Shown here one piece after another: positions 292 to 56,114 of a DNA stretch of 64,000 nt (the stretch's first letter is position 1; each line of letters opens with the position of its first letter). The DNA is from Candidatus Kerfeldbacteria bacterium (GTDB lineage: Bacteria > Patescibacteriota > Patescibacteriia > UBA9570 > XYC2-FULL-38-9), in NCBI GenBank assembly GCA_016182555.1, contig JACPGJ010000004.1, forward strand, positions 14,751 to 78,750. The letters are read 5' to 3'. Under the pieces are notes generated by a model. It did not search any database, was not told where the DNA came from, and worked only from the letters and a program-made list of their open reading frames with translations. Both the position numbers and the translations under genes were made by a program.

Positions 292-1704
292 TCATACCAT
301 CAATATTTTATCTCCGCGAACCAACACGATTTGCTTATCACGTTTTGCGTTATCAATCAACTCGCGTGTAAAACCAGACGTAGAACAAAGAATAAATTTT
401 TGTGCATAGTTTTTTGCGGAAAGATAACCAACAAACTGCGATTGCTCTTGTAGATGGTGCAACACTGCGGAACCAACGAGCTTGCGGCTATGCTTGGCTT
501 CCACAAAACTGATTATCCCCCGTTCATCATCTACTCCAACCATATCAATCTCAACATCTTTACTCCAAAACCGACGCGCACCCATTAAACGAAAACCCAG
601 GGTATCTTCTTGAGATTGGAGTATCGTCTTTATCATCTGTTCATACACTCCTGATTGAAAGAGTGAAAAATCTTTCTGAATCAATTTCACCATTTCCGCT
701 ACTCGACCTTCGGCGAGTACATCACGGTGCGGGAAAATATAACGAAACCAAAATTGAATAAAGTGTTCTTCCAAAAAATATAAACCGGATTTTGATTTTT
801 CTGGGTGGTGTCCAAATGGTACTTCGCGACGAATAAAATGCAGTCGTTGCAGATTGCTTAAATATTGCGTTATTGTTCCTTTTTGTAAACCACTACGTGC
901 AATAATTTCCGATAATTTATGCGCCCCAAACGCAATGCTGGAAAGCAGAGAAAAATAGATGGCGGGTTCGCGCAGCTCTTCCTGAATAAGAAATTCTACT
1001 TCATCTTTGAGTAGCGCATTTTTTGTAAGCGTCATCGCCGCGACATTTTCCCAAAATGATTTTTTTCTATCGTACTGTTCCCAATAAAGCGGAATCCCCC
1101 CGCAGAGCGAATAGATATTCAAGAGATCATCAAATTTCTTTACACCAAAATATTCTTTCAGTGGCTGATAGCTCATGGGAAGAACATGTAATATACCAGT
1201 TTTCCGGCCATACAACGGCGACTGATATTCCAGCGCTAATCGTTGCATCATACTCATACTGGAACCCGCAACAATGAGTTTAATTTTTCCCTGCCCGGTT
1301 GTTGTTGCGCGTGAATGAAAAAGATGATCGAGAATATATTGAAATTCGATCGCAATATTTTTATCAGACTCCACAAGATAGGGAAATTCATCAAGCACAA
1401 CCGTAATCGTTTTACCCTCTTTCAATAATCGTTCAAAGGCTTGTTTCCATGAAGAAAATCCGCGTTCGGCAATAAATGTATCTTTCAAGTACGCACCGGC
1501 TTGCTGTGAAAATTGAGCTAATTGTTGGACGCGCGGCAAGCGTTGTGCCATATAATAAAACCCTTCTTGTTTTTTAAGGATTTCTAACAATAACGATGTT
1601 TTCCCCACTCGCCTTTTCCCATACACCAGAATACATTCATTTTTTTTGCTCTGAATGGCTTGCTGCACATACGTTAATTCTTCGATTCTATTAACAAATT
1701 TCAT
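292..1704 (-). CDS. AAA+ ATPase of the archaeal-type ATPase/DUF234 family
   Basis: 470 aa. It has a Walker A motif (GKRRVGKTSLL) and a Walker B-like motif (VVLDEF). The overall architecture is typical of Arch_ATPase+DUF234 proteins. Confidence 0.75.
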   Translation of the reverse strand: MKFVNRIEELTYVQQAIQSKKNECILVYGKRRVGKTSLLLEILKKQEGFYYMAQRLPRVQQLAQFSQQAGAYLKDTFIAERGFSSWKQAFERLLKEGKTITVVLDEFPYLVESDKNIAIEFQYILDHLFHSRATTTGQGKIKLIVAGSSMSMMQRLALEYQSPLYGRKTGILHVLPMSYQPLKEYFGVKKFDDLLNIYSLCGGIPLYWEQYDRKKSFWENVAAMTLTKNALLKDEVEFLIQEELREPAIYFSLLSSIAFGAHKLSEIIARSGLQKGTITQYLSNLQRLHFIRREVPFGHHPEKSKSGLYFLEEHFIQFWFRYIFPHRDVLAEGRVAEMVKLIQKDFSLFQSGVYEQMIKTILQSQEDTLGFRLMGARRFWSKDVEIDMVGVDDERGIISFVEAKHSRKLVGSAVLHHLQEQSQFVGYLSAKNYAQKFILCSTSGFTRELIDNAKRDKQIVLVRGDKILMV

Positions 1705-4261: not shown

Positions 4262-5919
4262 TCGACGTTGAAAATTTTCCGCATCTCCCACAAACGGCTC
4301 GAAATATACGGGCGACGTGTTTCTCCAGTTGTCACCATGAGCAATTTGGTAATTTTCAAATACTCAGCGTCCGTATATAACAGAATCAACATTTCACGAA
4401 TATAGTTCGTATTGAGAGTCACGTAATTATCTGTTCCTACTCCTAATTGCAAACCTTTTTTTTCCCACCAAGAAAATGGGTGATCTTTAAAATCTGGTAC
4501 GAAATGCGTGAGGCGGAAATTCGATGATGGCAGGGAAACAAGGGACACCTGTTTATTGATCATGCGATTCAAAATATCGTGCTGGTAATGTTCCACTTCA
4601 CGAGCCGTATGGAACTTCGCCTTCGTGAAGGTAATCATTTCTGTATACGACAGTCGTTGCCCGGCAATCAATTTATCACGCACACCCAAATCATCGTCAT
4701 ACCAGCCCATCTCCATCACTTCATCATATTCGATAGTTCCTTCTTTCAAAGCGCGACCATCGATATTCCATTGCACGACGCGTTGGAATAAACTATGAAA
4801 ATAGTAATTCGGGTTCACTCCTAATGCAAGACCGTGTTCGAGTGAATCAATATGCCATATATTCATGGCGTTATCTACAGCTTGAATACCGCGGCGCAGA
4901 GTTTTCCAGGTTTCCCCATGGTGACTGCGAATACGAAAACCCGCGAATTGCAGTTTGCGAAACGCCTTCGTCATATCTAAATAATGCTGTTTACGGTAAA
5001 AATATTTCTCATCGCCCACCGTATCTATTTCACACAAATGATCACGTAATTGTGGATGACGCTCAATCATTTGTAACATGGCATTCACTTGATCTTCCAC
5101 ATCTTCTTTTTTGGTGGCGAAACGAGATTGATCAAAATAGTCTGGTTCTTTTCTGAAGACTGGTGAAAGGATAAAGTTAAAATCTGGATGCGCGCGTTGA
5201 AATTGGGCGAATCCATCATACAACCCCAGGACCACGTCTTCGGGTGTCAACCGTTCAATGCCAGGAATAATTTCGGATTCACGCGTACTATTTTTGCGTG
5301 AAAGCGTAAATTTCAAACGCACGTGTCCTACATTATATTTTGTATAGAGTTCATTTGCCAAAAAGTACGCTGCTTCTTTATGCGCTGTTCTGTTCGTCAG
5401 TACGAGCTTGGTTAAAAAAACAATTTGTAGATATCGATCAAAATATTCATTCTTTTGTAACCGAATCAGCTTGTCAACATCTGCTTTGGAGCGAATATGT
5501 GCGCTGCCCGGACCATACACATGCTCAATCTGTTCTTTGATTCGTTTTCCGTTTTTGCCGACCAGAAGTTTTTTCAAACGCGGGTAGACAAAATCCGCCG
5601 TGAGTGCACCGGTCAAATGGGTATGGTCTTCTCGATATTTCAATGGGAAATGCTGAAAAAATTGAAACAGCGCAGCAGAAACTGGATGGTCCAAAAGTGC
5701 ACGAATATCCGCTTTACTAATTTGATACGCAAGCAACCGTTCACGAAAATCTGCCACAGATTTGACTGCACGCGCACTCACCTGCTCAACATGATAACTC
5801 GTCATGAGTTCCAAGGTGTCTTCCAAGCTAATACCATTGGTTTCACTAATGATACTGGTAAAAAAATGCGTCAGCTCTTTTACCAGCTTTGGGTCATGAG
5901 CACGTGTTTGTGTATTCAT
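4258..5919 (-). CDS. Adenosine/AMP deaminase family metal-dependent hydrolase
   Basis: 553 aa. Its motifs follow the A_deaminase pattern: HTHLTG (HxH), SHHGE, EHGLALG and GVGTDN. Confidence 0.65.
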   Translation of the reverse strand: MNTQTRAHDPKLVKELTHFFTSIISETNGISLEDTLELMTSYHVEQVSARAVKSVADFRERLLAYQISKADIRALLDHPVSAALFQFFQHFPLKYREDHTHLTGALTADFVYPRLKKLLVGKNGKRIKEQIEHVYGPGSAHIRSKADVDKLIRLQKNEYFDRYLQIVFLTKLVLTNRTAHKEAAYFLANELYTKYNVGHVRLKFTLSRKNSTRESEIIPGIERLTPEDVVLGLYDGFAQFQRAHPDFNFILSPVFRKEPDYFDQSRFATKKEDVEDQVNAMLQMIERHPQLRDHLCEIDTVGDEKYFYRKQHYLDMTKAFRKLQFAGFRIRSHHGETWKTLRRGIQAVDNAMNIWHIDSLEHGLALGVNPNYYFHSLFQRVVQWNIDGRALKEGTIEYDEVMEMGWYDDDLGVRDKLIAGQRLSYTEMITFTKAKFHTAREVEHYQHDILNRMINKQVSLVSLPSSNFRLTHFVPDFKDHPFSWWEKKGLQLGVGTDNYVTLNTNYIREMLILLYTDAEYLKITKLLMVTTGETRRPYISSRLWEMRKIFNVD

Positions 5920-16809: not shown

Positions 16810-17934
16810 ATGTTAAAACGATTTTTTCAGCTAGAATCATTGGTAGAACCTGGGCAGGTGTTGGTTATTTATGGGCCGCGTCGCGTTGGGAAAACAACCC
16901 TCCTGCAAGAGTTTCTCTCTTTTACTTCGTTACGATATAAGAGAGATTCAGGGGATAATATTCGTGTGCAGCATATATTGAGTTCTCAAGATTTTCCCAC
17001 TATTTTAGAGTATGTTGAAGGATATCAATTATTAGCTATTGATGAAGCACAAACAATTCCCCATGTTGGAAAAGGATTGAAAATTATTGTAGACGAAAGA
17101 CCCGATATGATGGTTATTGCCACTGGTTCATCGTCATTTGATTTAGCCAATACTATTGGCGAGCCTCTCACTGGACGCAAACGAACAATTACCCTCTATC
17201 CGTTTGCACAGATGGAATTATTGAATATCTATAACCGTCATGAATTACGAGAGCGTCTACCTGAATTTTTAGTCTACGGTTCCTATCCTCAGGTGGTGAC
17301 CGCGCAAACGCATGAGAAAAAAATAATTATTCTGCAAGAGTTGGTTGATTCTTATATTTTGAAAGATATTTTGCAGATGGAAAAAGTGAAAGGATCAAAA
17401 ATATTATTAAATCTGTTAAAATTGTTGGCTTTTCAGGTTGGTCAGGAAGTGTCATATCATGAATTAGCAACGCAGCTGGGGATAAATGTAAAAACCGTAC
17501 AGCGATACATCGATTTATTTGAAAAAACATTTCTTATTACGCACCTGAGTGGATTTAGTCGAAATTTGCGAAAGGAAATAACCAAGAAAAATAAATATTA
17601 TTTTCTCGATAACGGTATACGCAACGCGATCATTGCGCAATTCAATTCTCTAGAAAATCGAAATGATGTAGGTGCTCTGTGGGAAAATTTTGTGGTCATG
17701 GAACGCATGAAAAAACGGAGCTATCACACACTCATTGCGAATGCGTATTTTTGGCGAACATATTCTGGGCAAGAGATTGATCTTATTGAGGAGCGCGGAG
17801 GACAGTTGTATGCGTATGAATGTAAGTGGGCACACAATAAAAATATTCGCCCACCAAAAGAATGGAGCCAAACGTATAAGCATACATCTTTTGAAGTGAT
17901 CACCCCGCAAAATTATCTGGATTTTATAACGTAA
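16810..17934 (+). CDS. ATP-binding protein of the AAA_14/DUF4143 family
   Basis: 374 aa. It has a Walker A motif (GPRRVGKTTLL) and Walker B (LLAIDEAQ). The C-terminus resembles DUF4143. Confidence 0.8.
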   Translation: MLKRFFQLESLVEPGQVLVIYGPRRVGKTTLLQEFLSFTSLRYKRDSGDNIRVQHILSSQDFPTILEYVEGYQLLAIDEAQTIPHVGKGLKIIVDERPDMMVIATGSSSFDLANTIGEPLTGRKRTITLYPFAQMELLNIYNRHELRERLPEFLVYGSYPQVVTAQTHEKKIIILQELVDSYILKDILQMEKVKGSKILLNLLKLLAFQVGQEVSYHELATQLGINVKTVQRYIDLFEKTFLITHLSGFSRNLRKEITKKNKYYFLDNGIRNAIIAQFNSLENRNDVGALWENFVVMERMKKRSYHTLIANAYFWRTYSGQEIDLIEERGGQLYAYECKWAHNKNIRPPKEWSQTYKHTSFEVITPQNYLDFIT

Positions 17935-29344: not shown

Positions 29345-30310
29345 CTATTGTTTCTCTTCTACTAATGAACGAAAATATTCTGCATAGCTGTGTAAAATAG
29401 CCGTACGCTGTGTAGCAAATTCATCAGGCCAGTAAATATCAATGCCATTACTTAATTCTATAAGCTTTGGCTTTCCTTTTTCATTAAAAAAGAAATCGAC
29501 CATAAATAGTTTATGCGGAAATAACGCAAAATGATTTTGTATTTTTTTAATAATCACCAGAATAGATTTTGGTATTTTTGCTATTGGCACAAGAATCATT
29601 TTACCATTCTGTTGTAGGTTACACAGCAGTTTTCCTGGCGCAGGAATACGCATATAGGAAATGATTATCGTATCATCAATGAGCACTACTCGAAAATCAT
29701 GCGTACCAATGTACAGATTCGGCACTCCGGCACGCGTATCGATGAATTCTTGCACAATCGAAGGAACACTCACCTGCACTGTAGCGGTTTGTGAACGTAA
29801 AACAATTTGGATACCCTTCCCACCAGAACCAAAACGCGGTTTTACGACTATGCGTGTTGTACGAATTTTTTTTGCTGCTGCCTGTAACTCTTGTGCATTA
29901 TTCACTGGAATAGTTTGTGGGACATCATCCGGAAATAACAGCGGAACAAAAATTTTATCTGAAGTGATGAGTTGTAATTCCACGGGGTTAATAACTGTCG
30001 TATACGCTTCAAGTCGTTGAATATCTGCTAAAAATTCGTAAGATATTCGTGTTTTATCGTGTACAATATCAGGTTGAATAGAACGATGTATTTTATTCCA
30101 TTGACCTTTTTTGAATTCCCAATATTTTGTAAACTGCTTTCCATCAAACCAACTCAAACACACCCGTACCATACGCACATGGTAATCTTTATCCGCGATA
30201 TTATACAATTCTTCATAACATTTACGTTGTAATGTATTGCTAAATGGATGTTCTTTATGCCAATCACTTCCTAAAAATAGCATGGCGACAACTGGCTTCT
30301 TTTTGCGCAT
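29345..30310 (-). CDS. ATP-grasp ligase, paralog 1 of 3
   Basis: VVKPRFGSGGKGIQIV, HDFRVVLI and DFFF...LIELSNG are ATP-grasp motifs. Its N-terminal domain is shared with paralogs 2 and 3. Confidence 0.7.
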   Translation of the reverse strand: MRKKKPVVAMLFLGSDWHKEHPFSNTLQRKCYEELYNIADKDYHVRMVRVCLSWFDGKQFTKYWEFKKGQWNKIHRSIQPDIVHDKTRISYEFLADIQRLEAYTTVINPVELQLITSDKIFVPLLFPDDVPQTIPVNNAQELQAAAKKIRTTRIVVKPRFGSGGKGIQIVLRSQTATVQVSVPSIVQEFIDTRAGVPNLYIGTHDFRVVLIDDTIIISYMRIPAPGKLLCNLQQNGKMILVPIAKIPKSILVIIKKIQNHFALFPHKLFMVDFFFNEKGKPKLIELSNGIDIYWPDEFATQRTAILHSYAEYFRSLVEEKQ

Positions 30311-30389
30311 AGACGTATAAAGTAAAATCTTAAAATGTGGCTAATGTTACTATAGCACACTCTCGAGATCTATATGACAAAAAATAGCT

Positions 30390-31364
30390 CTACTTCACTT
30401 TGAATGTTTTTTGCTCTATCAACTCTGTAAAATACTGTAAATACGTATGTGCAAGATAATAAAATTCTTTATCAAATTCCTTTGGCCAATAAATATTAAT
30501 ACCGGTATTCATTTCAATAAGCAATGGTTTATTTTTAAAAAAGAAAAAATCAATCATGAAAATGGCATGAGGGAATATAGAAAAACGGTTTTGAATTATT
30601 TGAACCGATGATCGCACAGATGATGGCAATTGATTCAAACGTAACCGCACTAATTCTGCACCCTGTGAAACATTGCACAATAGCTGATTTGTTTTTGCCG
30701 CACGAATATACGTGAGTACCACCCTTCCTCCAACCACAATACATCGTAAATCATGGATACCTTTGTACACACCAGGGATACCGGCTCGCGAATTAATAAA
30801 AGACTGAACAATCATGTGTGGACCAATTCGAAGCGTAGCAATATCGTGGCGATCTACAATTTGAATACCCAGCCCACTGTGACCAAAACGAGGTTTCACA
30901 ATAATTTTTTTTGTGGGTATTTTTTTCACTGCCAGCACTAAATCGTGCTCGGTATTAACGGCATAGGTTGGTGGCACCAGGTCGGGAAAAGCAATCGCAG
31001 GAAATAATTTATCTGAAATTTGCATTTCTAATTCCCACGGATTCACCACAAGAAATCGTTCACACATACTTTGCAACAGCGGTAGTGCTTCATATCGAAA
31101 TGAAGCTTTATTGTGAATCAAGTCAGGCACAATAGCTTTATTCATTTTTTTCCATTTTCCATGAGTGAATGTCCAATATTTTTTAAATGCTTTACCATCA
31201 AACCATTCTATAGCCACACGAATGCATTGAATATCATATTCATTATTAGCCAATGTATAAAAATCTTCATAACGCTTGCGTTGAAGTTCGTTAGAAAATG
31301 GTTGAGACTTCTCCCAATCACTCCCTGCATATAGTAGTGCAACAATATAACGATTCTTTTTCAT
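30390..31364 (-). CDS. ATP-grasp ligase, paralog 2 of 3
   Basis: IVKPRFGHSGLGIQIV, HDLRCIVV and DFFFF...LIEMNTG. Its N-terminus (LLYAGSDWEKSQPFSNELQRKRYEDFY) aligns with paralogs 1 and 3. Confidence 0.7.
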   Translation of the reverse strand: MKKNRYIVALLYAGSDWEKSQPFSNELQRKRYEDFYTLANNEYDIQCIRVAIEWFDGKAFKKYWTFTHGKWKKMNKAIVPDLIHNKASFRYEALPLLQSMCERFLVVNPWELEMQISDKLFPAIAFPDLVPPTYAVNTEHDLVLAVKKIPTKKIIVKPRFGHSGLGIQIVDRHDIATLRIGPHMIVQSFINSRAGIPGVYKGIHDLRCIVVGGRVVLTYIRAAKTNQLLCNVSQGAELVRLRLNQLPSSVRSSVQIIQNRFSIFPHAIFMIDFFFFKNKPLLIEMNTGINIYWPKEFDKEFYYLAHTYLQYFTELIEQKTFKVK

Positions 31365-31367
31365 AAT

Positions 31368-32237
31368 TTATTTCGTCATATGCTCATTCACAAGCTTCGA
31401 GAGTGCTTCTGTATCTGGAATCCAATAATATAGCTCCTTGCCAAAAGCTGGTGTATATATCTTCCCGCTTGCACCCGGTACAGAAGCTTCAACAATATCA
31501 CCAGTGGAAAAATGGCCATTCCGTGCAATACCAGCGCCCACGGCAAAACGAATCGATTGCAGTTGCGAATACCGTAACCGTGCTTGATTTGAATCTTCAA
31601 AATATTGCAGTAGCATGCGCATCTTCGTTGGAGTGACTGCTTTCATCACTAAAGAGCGCAATACTTCACGTTCATCGGCTTGTCGATTAAAATCTGAACG
31701 ACCATTGGTAAAGCGATCGCGAATAATTGCCAAGGCTGCAGCACCGTTTGTTGTCGTGCCGTCGACTGTTGTTCCGCCCAAATTATTCACAATCTCTTCA
31801 AAACTTCTGAATGTCACTTCAACCGTGGTGTCTATATGCATACTAATCAGCGTTTCAACCTGCTGTTGAGTAAGTTCGATGTTGCCCAACTCTTTCCCGT
31901 CATCTGGTCGTTCACCAAATGCATAAAAATGAGTGATTTTTTGCAATCCCCACTCCTGGTCATCAATTTTCGTATCACGAGGAATGCTCAATAAAAATAT
32001 TGGCTGTTTTGGATTTTTTGGAATAGACAACAAAAACAAAACATCTGATCGTGCACGCTCCGTACCACGTTGATCTGAACCAACAAACAAGATCGTATAA
32101 CGCTCCGGCGCAGTAATATAAACAAAAAAGAGAGTAGAAATAATAAGAATACACATCGTGAACAGAAATCCAAACAGAAATGCATTCACCCTCTTCATAC
32201 TAGGCAACAAGTGTTGAAAAATAACGTAAATATGCAT
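31368..32237 (-). CDS. LytR-CpsA-Psr (LCP) family cell-envelope phosphotransferase
   Basis: It has an N-terminal TM helix. FVGSDQRG...RSDVLFLLSIP...SIPRDT is the LCP core. Confidence 0.8.
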   Translation of the reverse strand: MHIYVIFQHLLPSMKRVNAFLFGFLFTMCILIISTLFFVYITAPERYTILFVGSDQRGTERARSDVLFLLSIPKNPKQPIFLLSIPRDTKIDDQEWGLQKITHFYAFGERPDDGKELGNIELTQQQVETLISMHIDTTVEVTFRSFEEIVNNLGGTTVDGTTTNGAAALAIIRDRFTNGRSDFNRQADEREVLRSLVMKAVTPTKMRMLLQYFEDSNQARLRYSQLQSIRFAVGAGIARNGHFSTGDIVEASVPGASGKIYTPAFGKELYYWIPDTEALSKLVNEHMTK

Positions 32238-33153
32238 GATATAATTTCGTTCGATTTTTCAGAAATTCTGGTGGGAAGAAAAAATCTGCCTTGGCGTTCA
32301 ATTCAACAATGAGTGGTCGACCGTTAGTAAAGAAAAAATCTGCTGTATACACTTTATAAGGAAACAAAGAAAGAGATTTTTGAATTGAGCGAATGATTGG
32401 AAAAACTGTTTTGGGAATTTCGGATATGGAAATAAACCGTGCCCCACCCTGTTGGGACATATTACATAATAATGTTCCAGGAGCAGGGGTACGAATATAG
32501 GCACCAATGATTTTTTCTCCTGTAAAAAGCATCCGCAAATCATGGATAGATGGATAGACATTGGGAATACCTTTCTGCGTATCAATGAATTCTTGCACAA
32601 TAATTGGAAATCGAATCTGTTTCTCACGAATTGCTGACTTTGCAGCGATAATAATTCCCGCACCACCTAAACCAATGCGCGGTTTAATCACTACTTTTTT
32701 TCCAGGAACACGCCGCAGTGCAGCACGTAACTCTTCTGAAGTGTTAGCATGTGTTGTATACGGAATATATTGTGGAAAAAGAATAGGTAAAAATAATTTA
32801 TCACTGACTAACAATTCTAATTCCCAGGGATTCACCAGCACATACTGTGTGGCGATTTCTTTTTTCACTGGAATCGTTTCATATGCAAATGCGGATTTAT
32901 CTAAAATAATATCTGGAATAATAGAACGTGTTATTTTTTGCCAACGTTTATTTTTATATGCCCAAAATTGTCGAAAAGACTTACCCTGAAACCAATCAAT
33001 GCATACACGCACAATGGTCATCTGATATTCTTTTTCAGCCAATGCGTACAACTGTTCATAACATTCGCGCTGAATGCTATTTGTAAAAGGTATTTTTTTT
33101 CGCGCGTCATCGCCTGAATACAGGATAGCGAGAATTTTATTTTTCATAGGCAT
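32200..33153 (-). CDS. ATP-grasp ligase, paralog 3 of 3
   Basis: VVIKPRIGLGGAGIIIA, HDLRMLF and DFFF...LIVELNA. Its N-terminus (ILYSGDDARKKIPFTNSIQRECYEQLY) aligns with paralogs 1 and 2. Confidence 0.7.
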   Translation of the reverse strand: MPMKNKILAILYSGDDARKKIPFTNSIQRECYEQLYALAEKEYQMTIVRVCIDWFQGKSFRQFWAYKNKRWQKITRSIIPDIILDKSAFAYETIPVKKEIATQYVLVNPWELELLVSDKLFLPILFPQYIPYTTHANTSEELRAALRRVPGKKVVIKPRIGLGGAGIIIAAKSAIREKQIRFPIIVQEFIDTQKGIPNVYPSIHDLRMLFTGEKIIGAYIRTPAPGTLLCNMSQQGGARFISISEIPKTVFPIIRSIQKSLSLFPYKVYTADFFFTNGRPLIVELNAKADFFFPPEFLKNRTKLYHAYLRYFSTLVA

Positions 33154-48378: not shown

Positions 48379-48780
48379 CTAGACAAAATAGACCATACCT
48401 TGAATATTAGCGTTGGTAGACTCAGCCAACTTACCAATAACGTATGTTGCGAGCGCCCAAGAGATCATCACGAATGCCAAACCGATAACAGCGGCAACCA
48501 ATAATTTCTTGGCTTTATCTACTTTACCAGGGTCTCCTGCTGCAGTCATCCATTTGAAACCACCAATAATAATGATGATGACGGCGACCAGCGCGAGTAA
48601 CGAAAGTGCGAGATTTACGATATCAGTCACAATATTCACTGGGTCATTTGTCCCAAGATTATCAGAGATTTCATCATAACCATCACCGCTCGTCGTAATC
48701 TGAGCGAATGCTGTTGTTGCTGTTGCCACCCATCCTAATGTGATAGCGGCACCAGAAGCGAATTTTTTTGAAATTTTCAT
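48379..48780 (-). CDS. TrbC/VirB2-like (T4SS-type) pilin family protein, paralog 1
   Basis: Signal peptide, then a hydrophobic helix, then GGFKWMTAAGDPGKVDKAKKLLVAAVIGLAFV. A strong SD (GGAGGTGA, 6-nt spacer) precedes the ATG at 48780. The ORF is open to 48873. Confidence 0.65.
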   Translation of the reverse strand: MKISKKFASGAAITLGWVATATTAFAQITTSGDGYDEISDNLGTNDPVNIVTDIVNLALSLLALVAVIIIIIGGFKWMTAAGDPGKVDKAKKLLVAAVIGLAFVMISWALATYVIGKLAESTNANIQGMVYFV

Positions 48781-48862
48781 TGTTTCACCTCCTTTCTGAA
48801 AGTTAATGAATAAAAACAGAGGTTTCTGTATTCCTGTATTGTGACAGATCATGAAATAACGG

Positions 48863-54809: not shown

Positions 54810-55121
54810 ATGCATATAGTTTTACAACCAAATGAAACCATTGTGAAACAAGGATTTGGTACGCATTTTGTTCGCATGATGGCGATGACCGGAAAACTAT
54901 TTTTGACTAATCAGCGTGTGTATTTTGTTACACATCCTTTGAATTTTCAGCGATATGATTTGTCGTTTTCTTTTGATACGATTGACCGAGTATACGCGAA
55001 GAATAATTTGCGTATTTTCCCACAGGGCTTAGTAATTCGGCTGCGAGATGGGCAAGAGCACCGGTTTGTAGTGTGGGGCCGCAAACAGTGGAAAACCGCT
55101 ATTGAGGAGTATTTGCAGTAA
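54810..55121 (+). CDS. Bacterial PH (bPH/GRAM-like) domain protein
   Basis: GKLFLTNQRVYFV motif. 103 aa counted from the Met at 54810. The upstream part of the ORF (from 54612) overlaps rlmH and was rejected. Confidence 0.45.
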   Translation: MHIVLQPNETIVKQGFGTHFVRMMAMTGKLFLTNQRVYFVTHPLNFQRYDLSFSFDTIDRVYAKNNLRIFPQGLVIRLRDGQEHRFVVWGRKQWKTAIEEYLQ

Positions 55122-55189
55122 ATTTGGCATTCCTTAGCGGAATATTTTTACCGTTTTTTCCCTAACTTTACAAAAATTTTTAGATATGT

Positions 55190-55490
55190 TAGAACTTCTG
55201 CATCTTGAAGCGAGCGGAGAGATTTTTAGGTGCATGGCGCACCGCAAAGGTCTCTCCGACGAGGAGGTGATATGCAAAGATTTGTGAGAGTACCGGCCTC
55301 GCCTGTCGTGGCGACCGAACCGGCGAGTGTTCGATGCCCGCCGGTGATTCCCGTGTCTTCTCGGAAAGAAATTCCCGAGAAGGCAGTTGAGCTCTCGCGC
55401 GATCTGCGCGCCCGCCGAGAGGCGCGCAGTGACTGAGAGAGCCGAGGGGTCGGAAACCACACCGTTGTGGCATCCGACCCTTCTTTTTTT
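55190..55490 (+). ncRNA. GC-rich (about 60%), heavily base-paired element of unknown class. It may be a structured ncRNA, a 3' UTR, or a horizontally acquired sORF (54 codons, 55272-55436, with consensus SD GGAGGTGA)
   Basis: It contains multiple perfect GC hairpins: GGAGAGA...TCTCTCC, GGTGCatggGCACC, ACCGGCG...CGCCGGT, CTTCTCGG...CCGAGAAG and CTGCGCGCC...GCGCGCAG. It ends in a strong terminator. No Rfam-like conserved motifs (RNase P, SRP, tmRNA) were recognised by eye. Confidence 0.3.
55447..55490 (+). terminator. Strong rho-independent terminator (GGGTCGGAaaCCACAccgtTGTGGcaTCCGACCC + TTCTTTTTTT)
   Basis: Seen directly in the sequence. Confidence 0.65.
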
Positions 55491-55520
55491 CCAAGCGTAG
55501 TGAGCCCTGGCTGCACAGGC

Positions 55521-55847
55521 TTAAAACAAAGGCATCTGCTGTTCAATACTTTTTGCCTTTTCTTGAACGCGTTGTGCGGCAGAAATAAAATCTTTCAATG
55601 GTAAATACTCTGTGGTTAAACCAAAATATTTTACTTTATTTTTCACCTCTTGTTCTTCAATAATTCCAGCGTCTTTTAACGGTTTAATATAATACGTGGA
55701 TATATTTGATTGAAATGTACCGAATTTTTTTGCAATGTCTTTTTGAGTGACTGTTCGTTCGTGGTCTATGATATAACGTAAAAATTCTTTTCGTTTATCC
55801 GTGAATGCAATGGTCTGTTCAATGCGTTCCCATAATTCTTTTCCCAA
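55521..55847 (-). CDS. Winged-helix DNA-binding protein (putative transcriptional regulator)
   Basis: 108 aa. TQKDIAKKFGTFQSNISTYYIKPLKDAGII is a wHTH-like segment. Confidence 0.5.
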   Translation of the reverse strand: MGKELWERIEQTIAFTDKRKEFLRYIIDHERTVTQKDIAKKFGTFQSNISTYYIKPLKDAGIIEEQEVKNKVKYFGLTTEYLPLKDFISAAQRVQEKAKSIEQQMPLF

Positions 55848-55850
55848 TAG

Positions 55851-56114
55851 TCATAATGCTTCATCGATAGAGAGGGCGGTTCCTCCTGGTGTGGAGTATT
55901 GTAATAGAATACTATTCAAAGCAGACATAATAGAACGAATATCTCCGTGATATAAATCATAGAGCCGAAAAATCACCTCATCTTCAAATGGCTTAATGTA
56001 TCCTTGCACTTCATCGGATTGTAATAAACTCATACGTTCATTGAATGCCTGAATAATTTCTGTTTTCGACAATGGTTGTAATAGGATGGGCGATTGGAGA
56101 AATACACTTTTCAC
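55851..56114 (-). CDS. Hypothetical protein; possibly the N-terminal half of a split gene together with 55521-55847
   Basis: 87-aa ORF. Its stop lies 3 nt from the start of the downstream ORF. Confidence 0.35.
   Translation of the reverse strand: MKSVFLQSPILLQPLSKTEIIQAFNERMSLLQSDEVQGYIKPFEDEVIFRLYDLYHGDIRSIMSALNSILLQYSTPGGTALSIDEAL

Follow-up and report, generated by a model that had tools for sequence, protein, structure and literature searches.

The locus described here lies in a 64,000-nucleotide (nt) stretch of contig JACPGJ010000004.1, part of a Candidatus Kerfeldbacteria metagenome-assembled genome (MAG); this whole 64-kb stretch is referred to below as the window. Its plus strand carries a GRAM/PH-type gene (54810-55121; Pfam GRAM, E 4e-9), downstream of which lies, on the minus strand, a convergent winged-helix (wHTH) gene encoding 108 amino acids (aa; 55521-55847). 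The 400-nt spacer between the stop codons of these two genes holds the element under study, a GC-rich and densely folded segment with its core at about 55203-55490 on the plus strand and with an open reading frame (ORF) of 54 codons. The neighbouring proteins are MBI2410537-40 of the Candidatus Kerfeldbacteria MAG, and since these accessions are numbered consecutively, the NCBI annotation is empty between GRAM and wHTH. As the first-pass annotation of this DNA had described, the element follows the bPH (GRAM/PH-type) gene and is followed by nothing on its own strand. It appears to be a single-copy small gene that is limited to a Kerfeldbacteria-related sublineage of the Patescibacteria and matches no known RNA or protein family.

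The element stands apart from its surroundings in both composition and folding. GC content in 200-nt windows across 55200-55499 is 0.575-0.62, and over 150 nt it peaks at 0.66, compared with a mean of 0.427 (standard deviation (sd) 0.056) for the 64 kb. This is the top GC peak of the window, at about +4 sd, and it bears out the jump to about 60% over an AT-richer background that had been reported earlier. Folded as plus-strand RNA, 55190-55495 reaches a minimum free energy of -142.9 kcal/mol (z -6.43), and 0 of 100 shuffled sequences folded as well. When sliding 300-nt windows across the whole 64 kb were scored against shuffles (n=319), the element reached z -6.37 over a background mean of -0.17 (sd 1.24), with the runner-up at -3.6, making it the strongest folding outlier of the 64-kb window. 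The earlier count of at least six perfect hairpins holds for their dense packing, but the strong ones number five and several contain bulges or G-U pairs.

Read from 5' to 3' on the plus strand, the locus has parts that could make up a short transcription unit. Directly after the GRAM stop codon (TAA, 55119-55121) is a weak terminator-like hairpin, ATTCC-TTAGC-GGAAT followed by ATTTTT (55129-55149), which is identical in L008, one of the related lineages described below. A promoter-like site can be read at 55167-55195, consisting of a -35 element TTTACA (55167-55172), a 17-nt spacer and an extended -10 element TGtTAGAAC (55187-55195); a generic promoter scan does not report it because the -10 hexamer does not end in T. 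Transcription would begin at about 55202-55205 and is predicted to yield an RNA of about 290 nt (about 55203-55490). Its 5' end would carry H1, a 44-nt stem-loop of 13 + 5 bp (55215-55258; -26.3 kcal/mol), the arms of which are Shine-Dalgarno (SD)-like (5', GGAGAG) and anti-SD-like (3', CUCUCC). A weak helix (55261-55301) then contains the SD-type sequence AGGAGGTGAT (55262-55271), which is complementary over 10 nt to the canonical 3' tail of 16S rRNA.

The 54-codon ORF MQRFVRVPASPVVATEPASVRCPPVIPVSSRKEIPEKAVELSRDLRARREARSD follows at once (55272-55436) and would occupy 57% of the RNA. It runs through H3, which has a perfect 7-bp outer stem ACCGGCG/CGCCGGT (55319-55345), H4, with an 11-bp stem CUUCUCGG.../...CCGAGAAG (55354-55385), and H5, of 6 + 2 + 10 bp and -30.1 kcal/mol (55391-55442), the 3' arm of which holds the stop codon. 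As noted previously, the ORF ends in a TGA just before a long terminator hairpin with a U-run: the TGA (55434-55436) is 8 nt from the terminator stem, and the terminator (55444-55490) consists of an 11 + 5 bp stem-loop at 55444-55483 followed by T7 (55484-55490). The stem-loop folds at -28 kcal/mol (z -6.8), as is typical of an intrinsic (Rho-independent) terminator, and a simple terminator scanner passed over it because its stem has internal loops.

The SD sequence is unusual for this genome. The core AGGAGGTG occupies 55262-55269, with 2 nt between it and the ATG at 55272. The consensus SD noted in the first-pass annotation is therefore present, but its spacing is not the 5 nt given there: AGGAGG lies 4 nt and AGGAGGTGA 1 nt from the ATG. 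An SD match of at least 5 nt is found at only 2 of the window's 59 ORF starts, and GGAGG is not enriched. Over both strands of the 64 kb (128 kb), AGGAGGTG occurs twice, each time before an ATG; the second copy is 5 nt upstream of the ATG (48780, minus strand) of a T4SS-pilin gene (Pfam T4SS_pilin, E 1e-12), whose SD GAAAGGAGGTGA (48780-48800, minus strand) is complementary to the canonical 16S tail over 12 nt. Because the genome almost never uses an SD, the SD-ATG of the element is more significant than could be appreciated at first. Part of the Parcubacteria often lack the anti-SD motif (PMC9297842), a finding with which the SD-poverty of the window is consistent; the host's own 16S rRNA lies outside the window.

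Overall folding is nearly equal on the two strands (z -6.4 on plus, -6.8 on minus), because the hairpins are near-perfect palindromes. This symmetry could point to a function at the DNA level, with the clustered palindromes serving as an origin of replication or transfer, a single-strand origin, a site for recombination or a repetitive extragenic palindromic/bacterial interspersed mosaic element (REP/BIME)-like sequence. The position between convergent genes, next to what may be, on an unconfirmed reading by eye, the remnant of a lid plus winged-helix initiator-like protein, also fits such a function. Nevertheless, this explanation is very improbable. Individual parts favour the plus strand, including H1 (-26.3 against -22.6 kcal/mol) and the SD-containing helix (-11.7 against -5.2 kcal/mol), while the terminator U-run exists on the plus strand alone and the minus strand shows no convincing promoter and terminator pair in the scan. 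The features conserved among relatives are of the RNA type, namely the promoter, the SD-AUG, the one-strand U-tract and G-U pairs that favour the plus strand. No second copy of more than 11-14 nt of the element occurs in the other 63.6 kb or in related loci (64 kb of the genome checked), and neither Rep, relaxase nor integrase was found nearby. Likewise, blastn against phage and plasmid collections gave no match to the element, and viral-contig scans with the wHTH protein, an adjacent 87-aa protein and the DNA pattern gave no match. REP/BIME and miniature inverted-repeat transposable elements were rejected on the ground that the element is single-copy, as was a repeat family or the template and variable repeats of a diversity-generating retroelement, the window holding no second copy.

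Counterparts at the same locus in related lineages

Relatives were sought with GRAM as the anchor, through a genome scan, a metagenome scan and a profile protein search followed by context look-ups, which together covered 14 GRAM lineages. The element is present in 3 of the 14: that of the window (identical in L001 and L002), L008, where it is a fragment, and L003/L005. The nearest matches of the genome scan belong to Patescibacteria/Kerfeldbacteria. Counterparts such as the first-pass annotation had proposed to look for thus exist at the same locus in two related lineages, L008 (partial) and L003.

In L008, GRAM is 89% identical to that of the window. The equivalent of 55140-55199, which includes the promoter-like site, carries 1 change only, while the adjoining coding DNA diverges. 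H1 has accumulated five changes and keeps its fold (-25.2 kcal/mol), with one G-C pair becoming G-U on the plus strand. The AGGAGGTG-ATG is also kept, and the contig stops 10 nt past the ATG (2950-2959).

The L003/L005 lineage is more distant, with identities to the window of 50% for GRAM, 64% for GalU and 53% for SBP. At the equivalent position, L003 has a promoter-like TAGACA-17-TGtTACATG, followed by a 5' hairpin GGAGGG/CCCUCC that differs from the window's GGAGAG/CUCUCC by one compensatory exchange of an A-U for a G-C pair. Its start region reads AGGAGGTG-N3-ATGCAAA (AGGAGGTGcgtATGCAAAAAATT...AGAGT) and opens a 58-codon ORF (4605-4781), which forms a singleton cluster and is labelled a hypothetical protein by NCBI. 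Several GC-rich hairpins come next, and the terminator GAGGGCGUCGG...CCCUUCUUUAUUU, 27 nt beyond the stop codon, resembles GAGGGGUCGG...CCCUUCUUUUUUU of the window. GC content is again raised (0.49-0.52 against 0.40 for the locus), as is folding (z -6.1). The internal hairpins of the window and of L003 agree neither in number nor in position or sequence, and across all three lineages the SD-ATG is the best-kept part of the element. Based on position, the order of parts, the SD/start and the terminator ends, homology between the window and L003 elements is probable rather than proven.

L003 contains a second GC-rich stretch 3' of the element (4860-5035, plus strand; about 175 nt), which has its own terminator-like hairpin and no Rfam match. 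It was considered as a homologous half and rejected, being unstructured (z +0.67) and sharing short matches only.

These comparisons bear on whether the element is a unit of its own. It lies 80 nt past GRAM on the same strand and its ORF ends close to the terminator stem, features that would suit a long structured 3' untranslated region (UTR) of GRAM, one of the options raised in the first-pass annotation, or equally a terminator cluster or a leader-peptide attenuator. We regard all of these as highly unlikely. Both the GRAM-proximal terminator-like hairpin and the conserved promoter-like site stand between GRAM and the element, and most GRAM orthologues have no such tail. In L003, a tRNA-Arg(CCG) gene on the opposite strand (4364-4436, minus) intervenes, and the distance from stop codon to terminator is the longer one given above. 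An attenuator would in addition need a gene to control, and none lies downstream on the plus strand; the leader-peptide type was rejected with the next gene being on the minus strand in both the window (wHTH) and L003 (gatB). The near invariance of the promoter-like site in L008, its presence at the same position in L003 and the separation of GRAM from the element by the tRNA-Arg support an independent unit.

The gene order shared among relatives is SBP-GalU-RlmH (minus), GRAM (plus), FtsX/MacB-ABC-YknX (minus) and ECF sigma (plus). What follows GRAM varies: in L011/L012 it directly overlaps the end of the FtsX gene, and in L010, L009, L013, L014, L017 and L019 other, unrelated genes come after it. 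The element therefore occupies a variable insertion site. This variability is what would be expected if the element were a non-functional or decaying remnant of a mobile or foreign segment inserted between GRAM and the MacB-type exporter, with its hairpins and signals as leftovers. The same explanation would suit the adjoining AT-rich pair of ORFs (87 aa and wHTH), which is split by an in-frame TGA and has no relatives in the fetched loci, as well as the L003 copy, which sits beside a tRNA gene, a common integration site.

Such a remnant is nevertheless improbable. The GC excess, the z of about -6, the promoter, the SD and the terminator are kept in two lineages with neighbours only 50-64% identical, and in the comparison of the window with L008 the promoter and H1 are visibly constrained. 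Moreover, the element is single-copy without repeats, and L003 has it without the wHTH genes. The related proposal in the first-pass annotation, a horizontally acquired small gene, is not supported as the source of the GC excess, since an unselected foreign GC signature should have decayed at a locus shared with such divergent neighbours. A GC excess and extreme folding that persist in both lineages at this distance argue for selection.

Several other features of the neighbourhood were recorded. The 87-aa ORF and the 108-aa wHTH ORF (together 55521-56114, minus strand; GC 0.30-0.37) are in one frame with a single TGA (55851-55853) between them, and may be a gene, brought in with an inserted segment, that has been split or truncated. 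In the NCBI annotation this region holds a 60-aa protein and the wHTH protein, and it is missing in relatives where GRAM abuts FtsX. The 87-aa ORF has a GDIRS... motif and may be an AAA+ lid, a reading made by eye only that the analysis did not confirm. Two AAA-type ATPase genes of the window (292-1704, minus; 16810-17934, plus) weakly match Orc1/Cdc6-like or Csa3-like HTH models (NCBIfam, E 5e-5 and 7e-4). Neither is similar to the fragment made up of the 87-aa and wHTH ORFs, which was rejected as their paralogue. Further away, the window contains three tandem paralogues of about 320 aa (29345-33153, minus) with the N-terminus M.KK..V..L..GSDW.K..PFSN.LQR.CYE and a 289-aa membrane-like ORF between two of them. 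In L011/L012, three consecutive HEPN/HepT-like and nucleotidyltransferase (MNT) pairs (446-2845) are found upstream of GRAM in place of SBP-GalU-RlmH.

Reading frame, peptide and family searches

Counted from their sequences, the peptides predicted for the window and L003 ORFs both have a net charge of +4, and both are hydrophilic, with a grand average of hydropathy (GRAVY) of -0.46 and -0.67, respectively. The maximum Kyte-Doolittle value over 19 aa is 0.74 in the window and 0.23 in L003, so neither peptide has a transmembrane segment. These values and the negative GRAVY led to the rejection of a type I toxin mRNA.

Conservation of the peptide is concentrated at its start. Over the first 13 codons, the window and L003 have in common MQ[RK][FI](V)RV....VV; the one 3-nt indel keeps the frame, and three Val codons differ synonymously. 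The start-codon region of the ORF thus appears to carry a small protein-type signal. Neither homologues nor purifying selection over the whole peptide, as would characterise a conserved small-protein family, were found. Two apparent resemblances of the N-terminus, to KOW and to bS21, were dropped for want of profile support.

Searches against known families were consistently negative. The whole window has no match in Rfam 15 at gathering scores, membership being taken as a score at or above the gathering threshold of a family, including RNase P, signal recognition particle (SRP) RNA, 6S, transfer-messenger RNA (tmRNA), raiA, OLE, HEARO, riboswitches and ribozymes. Relaxing the search of 55000-55700 to E<=10 returned only chance matches to microRNA (miRNA) and AfaR models, 60-80 bits under the thresholds. 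The first-pass impression, formed by eye, that the element is not RNase P, SRP, tmRNA or 6S RNA is upheld by this result, and ARAGORN found no tRNA or tmRNA in the window. On the protein side, a 68-aa gene-caller version of the ORF matched itself alone among 5.8 G protein clusters, the three open minus-strand frames of the element gave nothing significant in Pfam, and the L003 peptide had no match among PDB sequences. A role as a CsrA sponge was also rejected, as GGA motifs are not enriched (window, 4 observed against 6.3 expected; L003, 11 against 7.7).

A proposed structured small RNA with a ribosome-binding site

The reading that we tentatively prefer, while giving it somewhat less than an even chance, is that the element encodes an autonomous, ribosome-engaged and very stable structured small RNA (sRNA), either a coding or dual-function sRNA or the heavily structured mRNA of a small ORF (sORF). 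Under this model, a sigma-70-like promoter with an extended -10 would drive the plus-strand transcript of about 290 nt, which would be capped by the stable 5' stem-loop and closed by the intrinsic terminator at its 3' end. The strong SD would recruit 30S subunits in a genome that otherwise initiates without one, and the ORF of about 55 codons would be translated through the three GC-rich hairpins up to a stop just before the terminator. The resulting peptide would be short, basic and largely disordered, with a conserved N-terminal motif MQ[RK][FI]-RV----VV, and the terminal hairpins would lengthen the lifetime of the RNA. Selection would act on the signals for transcription and on the terminator, on the 5' hairpin, on the SD/AUG together with roughly the first 13 codons and on a high density of GC-rich hairpins, leaving the rest of the peptide and the individual internal hairpins free to change. 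The active product may be the RNA body, the peptide or both.

A number of observations weigh against this reading. The length of the ORF is not significant, as 1238 of 5000 dinucleotide shuffles are as open (25%; 37% for L003), and its GC content (0.62 against 0.43 for the genome) and codon usage are far from those of the host. Past about residue 13, the window and L003 peptides are no closer than shuffles (score 19, with 1662 of 2000 as high). The 54-aa peptide finds only itself in a HMMER search of 1.84 G (1.84 billion) representative proteins, the plus-strand ORF has no Pfam match at E<=0.01 (best E=0.067 at E<=10), and from the single sequence AlphaFold2 predicts one C-terminal helix and no other fold (pTM 0.34). 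In the predicted RNA structure, most of the SD itself is taken up in base pairs, with an unpaired probability of about 0.05. At the level of the DNA comparison, sequence matches between the window and L003 are short and individually non-significant (best local E 0.46), and a set of two lineages and one fragment is too small for real covariation testing. Finally, the bases after the ATG differ in L008 (ATGAACGAA against ATGCAAAGA), right at the contig end.

The final bases of the L008 contig read ATGAACGAAA where the window has ATGCAAAGAT, a difference for which strain variation, rearrangement or an assembly artefact are possible sources.

Much of this evidence would suit a purely noncoding structured sRNA, the ORF being a by-product of GC-rich composition and AGGAGGUG..AUG a structural or binding motif. 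An uncharacterised structured noncoding RNA was one of the options in the first-pass annotation, and as far as structure goes it has gained support: the element is the top folding outlier, its L003 counterpart is also GC-rich and folded, and no Rfam family accounts for it. GC excess in an AT-richer genome is, reportedly according to Klein, Misulovin and Eddy in 2002, the classic sign of a structural RNA gene. The insignificant openness of the ORF, the unrelated and homologue-free peptides beyond their N-termini and the paired SD are all as a noncoding RNA would have them, and the Prokaryotic Genome Annotation Pipeline (PGAP) made no ORF call here in the window's MAG.

The noncoding explanation is a strong rival, to which we give a lower probability than to the preferred reading. 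The best-kept segment is precisely an SD with a correctly spaced AUG and the opening codons, where the Val codons change synonymously and the indel stays in frame, and the one other AGGAGGTG of the window is a true gene start. In addition, the internal hairpins are not kept between lineages, which argues against a defined tertiary RNA fold. Were the RNA noncoding, its motif might, for example, pair with another part of the same molecule, with the 3' tail of 16S rRNA or with the 30S subunit.

A further possibility concerns the ribosome directly. In a lineage that has for the most part given up SD-led initiation, a stable RNA perfectly complementary to the 16S 3' tail over 10 nt may have the ribosome itself as its target. 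It might be a decoy or sponge, a sensor of 30S subunits whose anti-SD is exposed, or a switch coupled to translation. If the ORF did no more than load and release ribosomes, this would account for a conserved SD, AUG and opening codons next to a peptide that is not kept. The chance that the element works in this way appears slim.

Significance and comparison with known systems

The regulatory RNAs and small proteins of the Patescibacteria (Candidate Phyla Radiation, CPR) have hardly been charted, as the organisms have not been cultivated and loci of this type are passed over in standard annotation. Here, a well-delimited, previously unannotated and lineage-restricted sRNA/sORF candidate has been described, although its general kind is already known. 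If expressed, it would offer a first handle on sRNA/sORF biology in this lineage and a way into the few SD-led genes of an SD-poor CPR genome. Its narrow distribution limits its wider importance for now.

Among known systems, dual-function sRNAs provide one close parallel. These RNAs are 200-500 nt long, are transcribed independently from a dedicated promoter up to an intrinsic terminator, and combine stable stem-loops with a small ORF that has a genuine ribosome-binding site (RBS). Like Bacillus subtilis SR1/SR1P, Staphylococcus RNAIII/hld and E. coli SgrS/SgrT, the element would be a short unit with a putative promoter and a terminator of its own, stem-loops and a small ORF with a candidate RBS. 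It differs from them in having no sequence or Rfam relationship, in the large share of the RNA taken up by the ORF (57%) and in a peptide that is kept at its N-terminus only.

Type I toxin mRNAs (hok, fst, txpA, tisB) are structured and stable, combine a 5' stem, a strong sequestrable SD, 30-60 codons and a terminator, and are often lineage-specific orphans. The element has the same predicted layout, in which a 5' stem, a strong SD open to sequestration, a short ORF and a terminator make up a small and presumably stable mRNA, but its peptide is hydrophilic without a transmembrane segment and no antisense RNA gene is evident. GC-island structural RNA genes and orphan noncoding RNAs such as raiA, ROOL and GOLLD resemble it in their GC peak, extreme folding, intergenic position and own terminator. 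In contrast to these, the element has no Rfam match at E<=10, does not keep its internal helices and has a conserved SD-AUG.

The use of a strong SD in an SD-poor genome also has a precedent. In Flavobacteriia, rpsU (bS21) is a rare strong-SD gene in SD-poor bacteria, and like the element it is a very small, basic ORF with a near-perfect long SD. The peptide considered here is neither bS21 nor a member of any known family, and the anti-SD tail used for comparison was the canonical one. By analogy with rpsU, a strong SD on such a small ORF suggests special translational control or very high expression.

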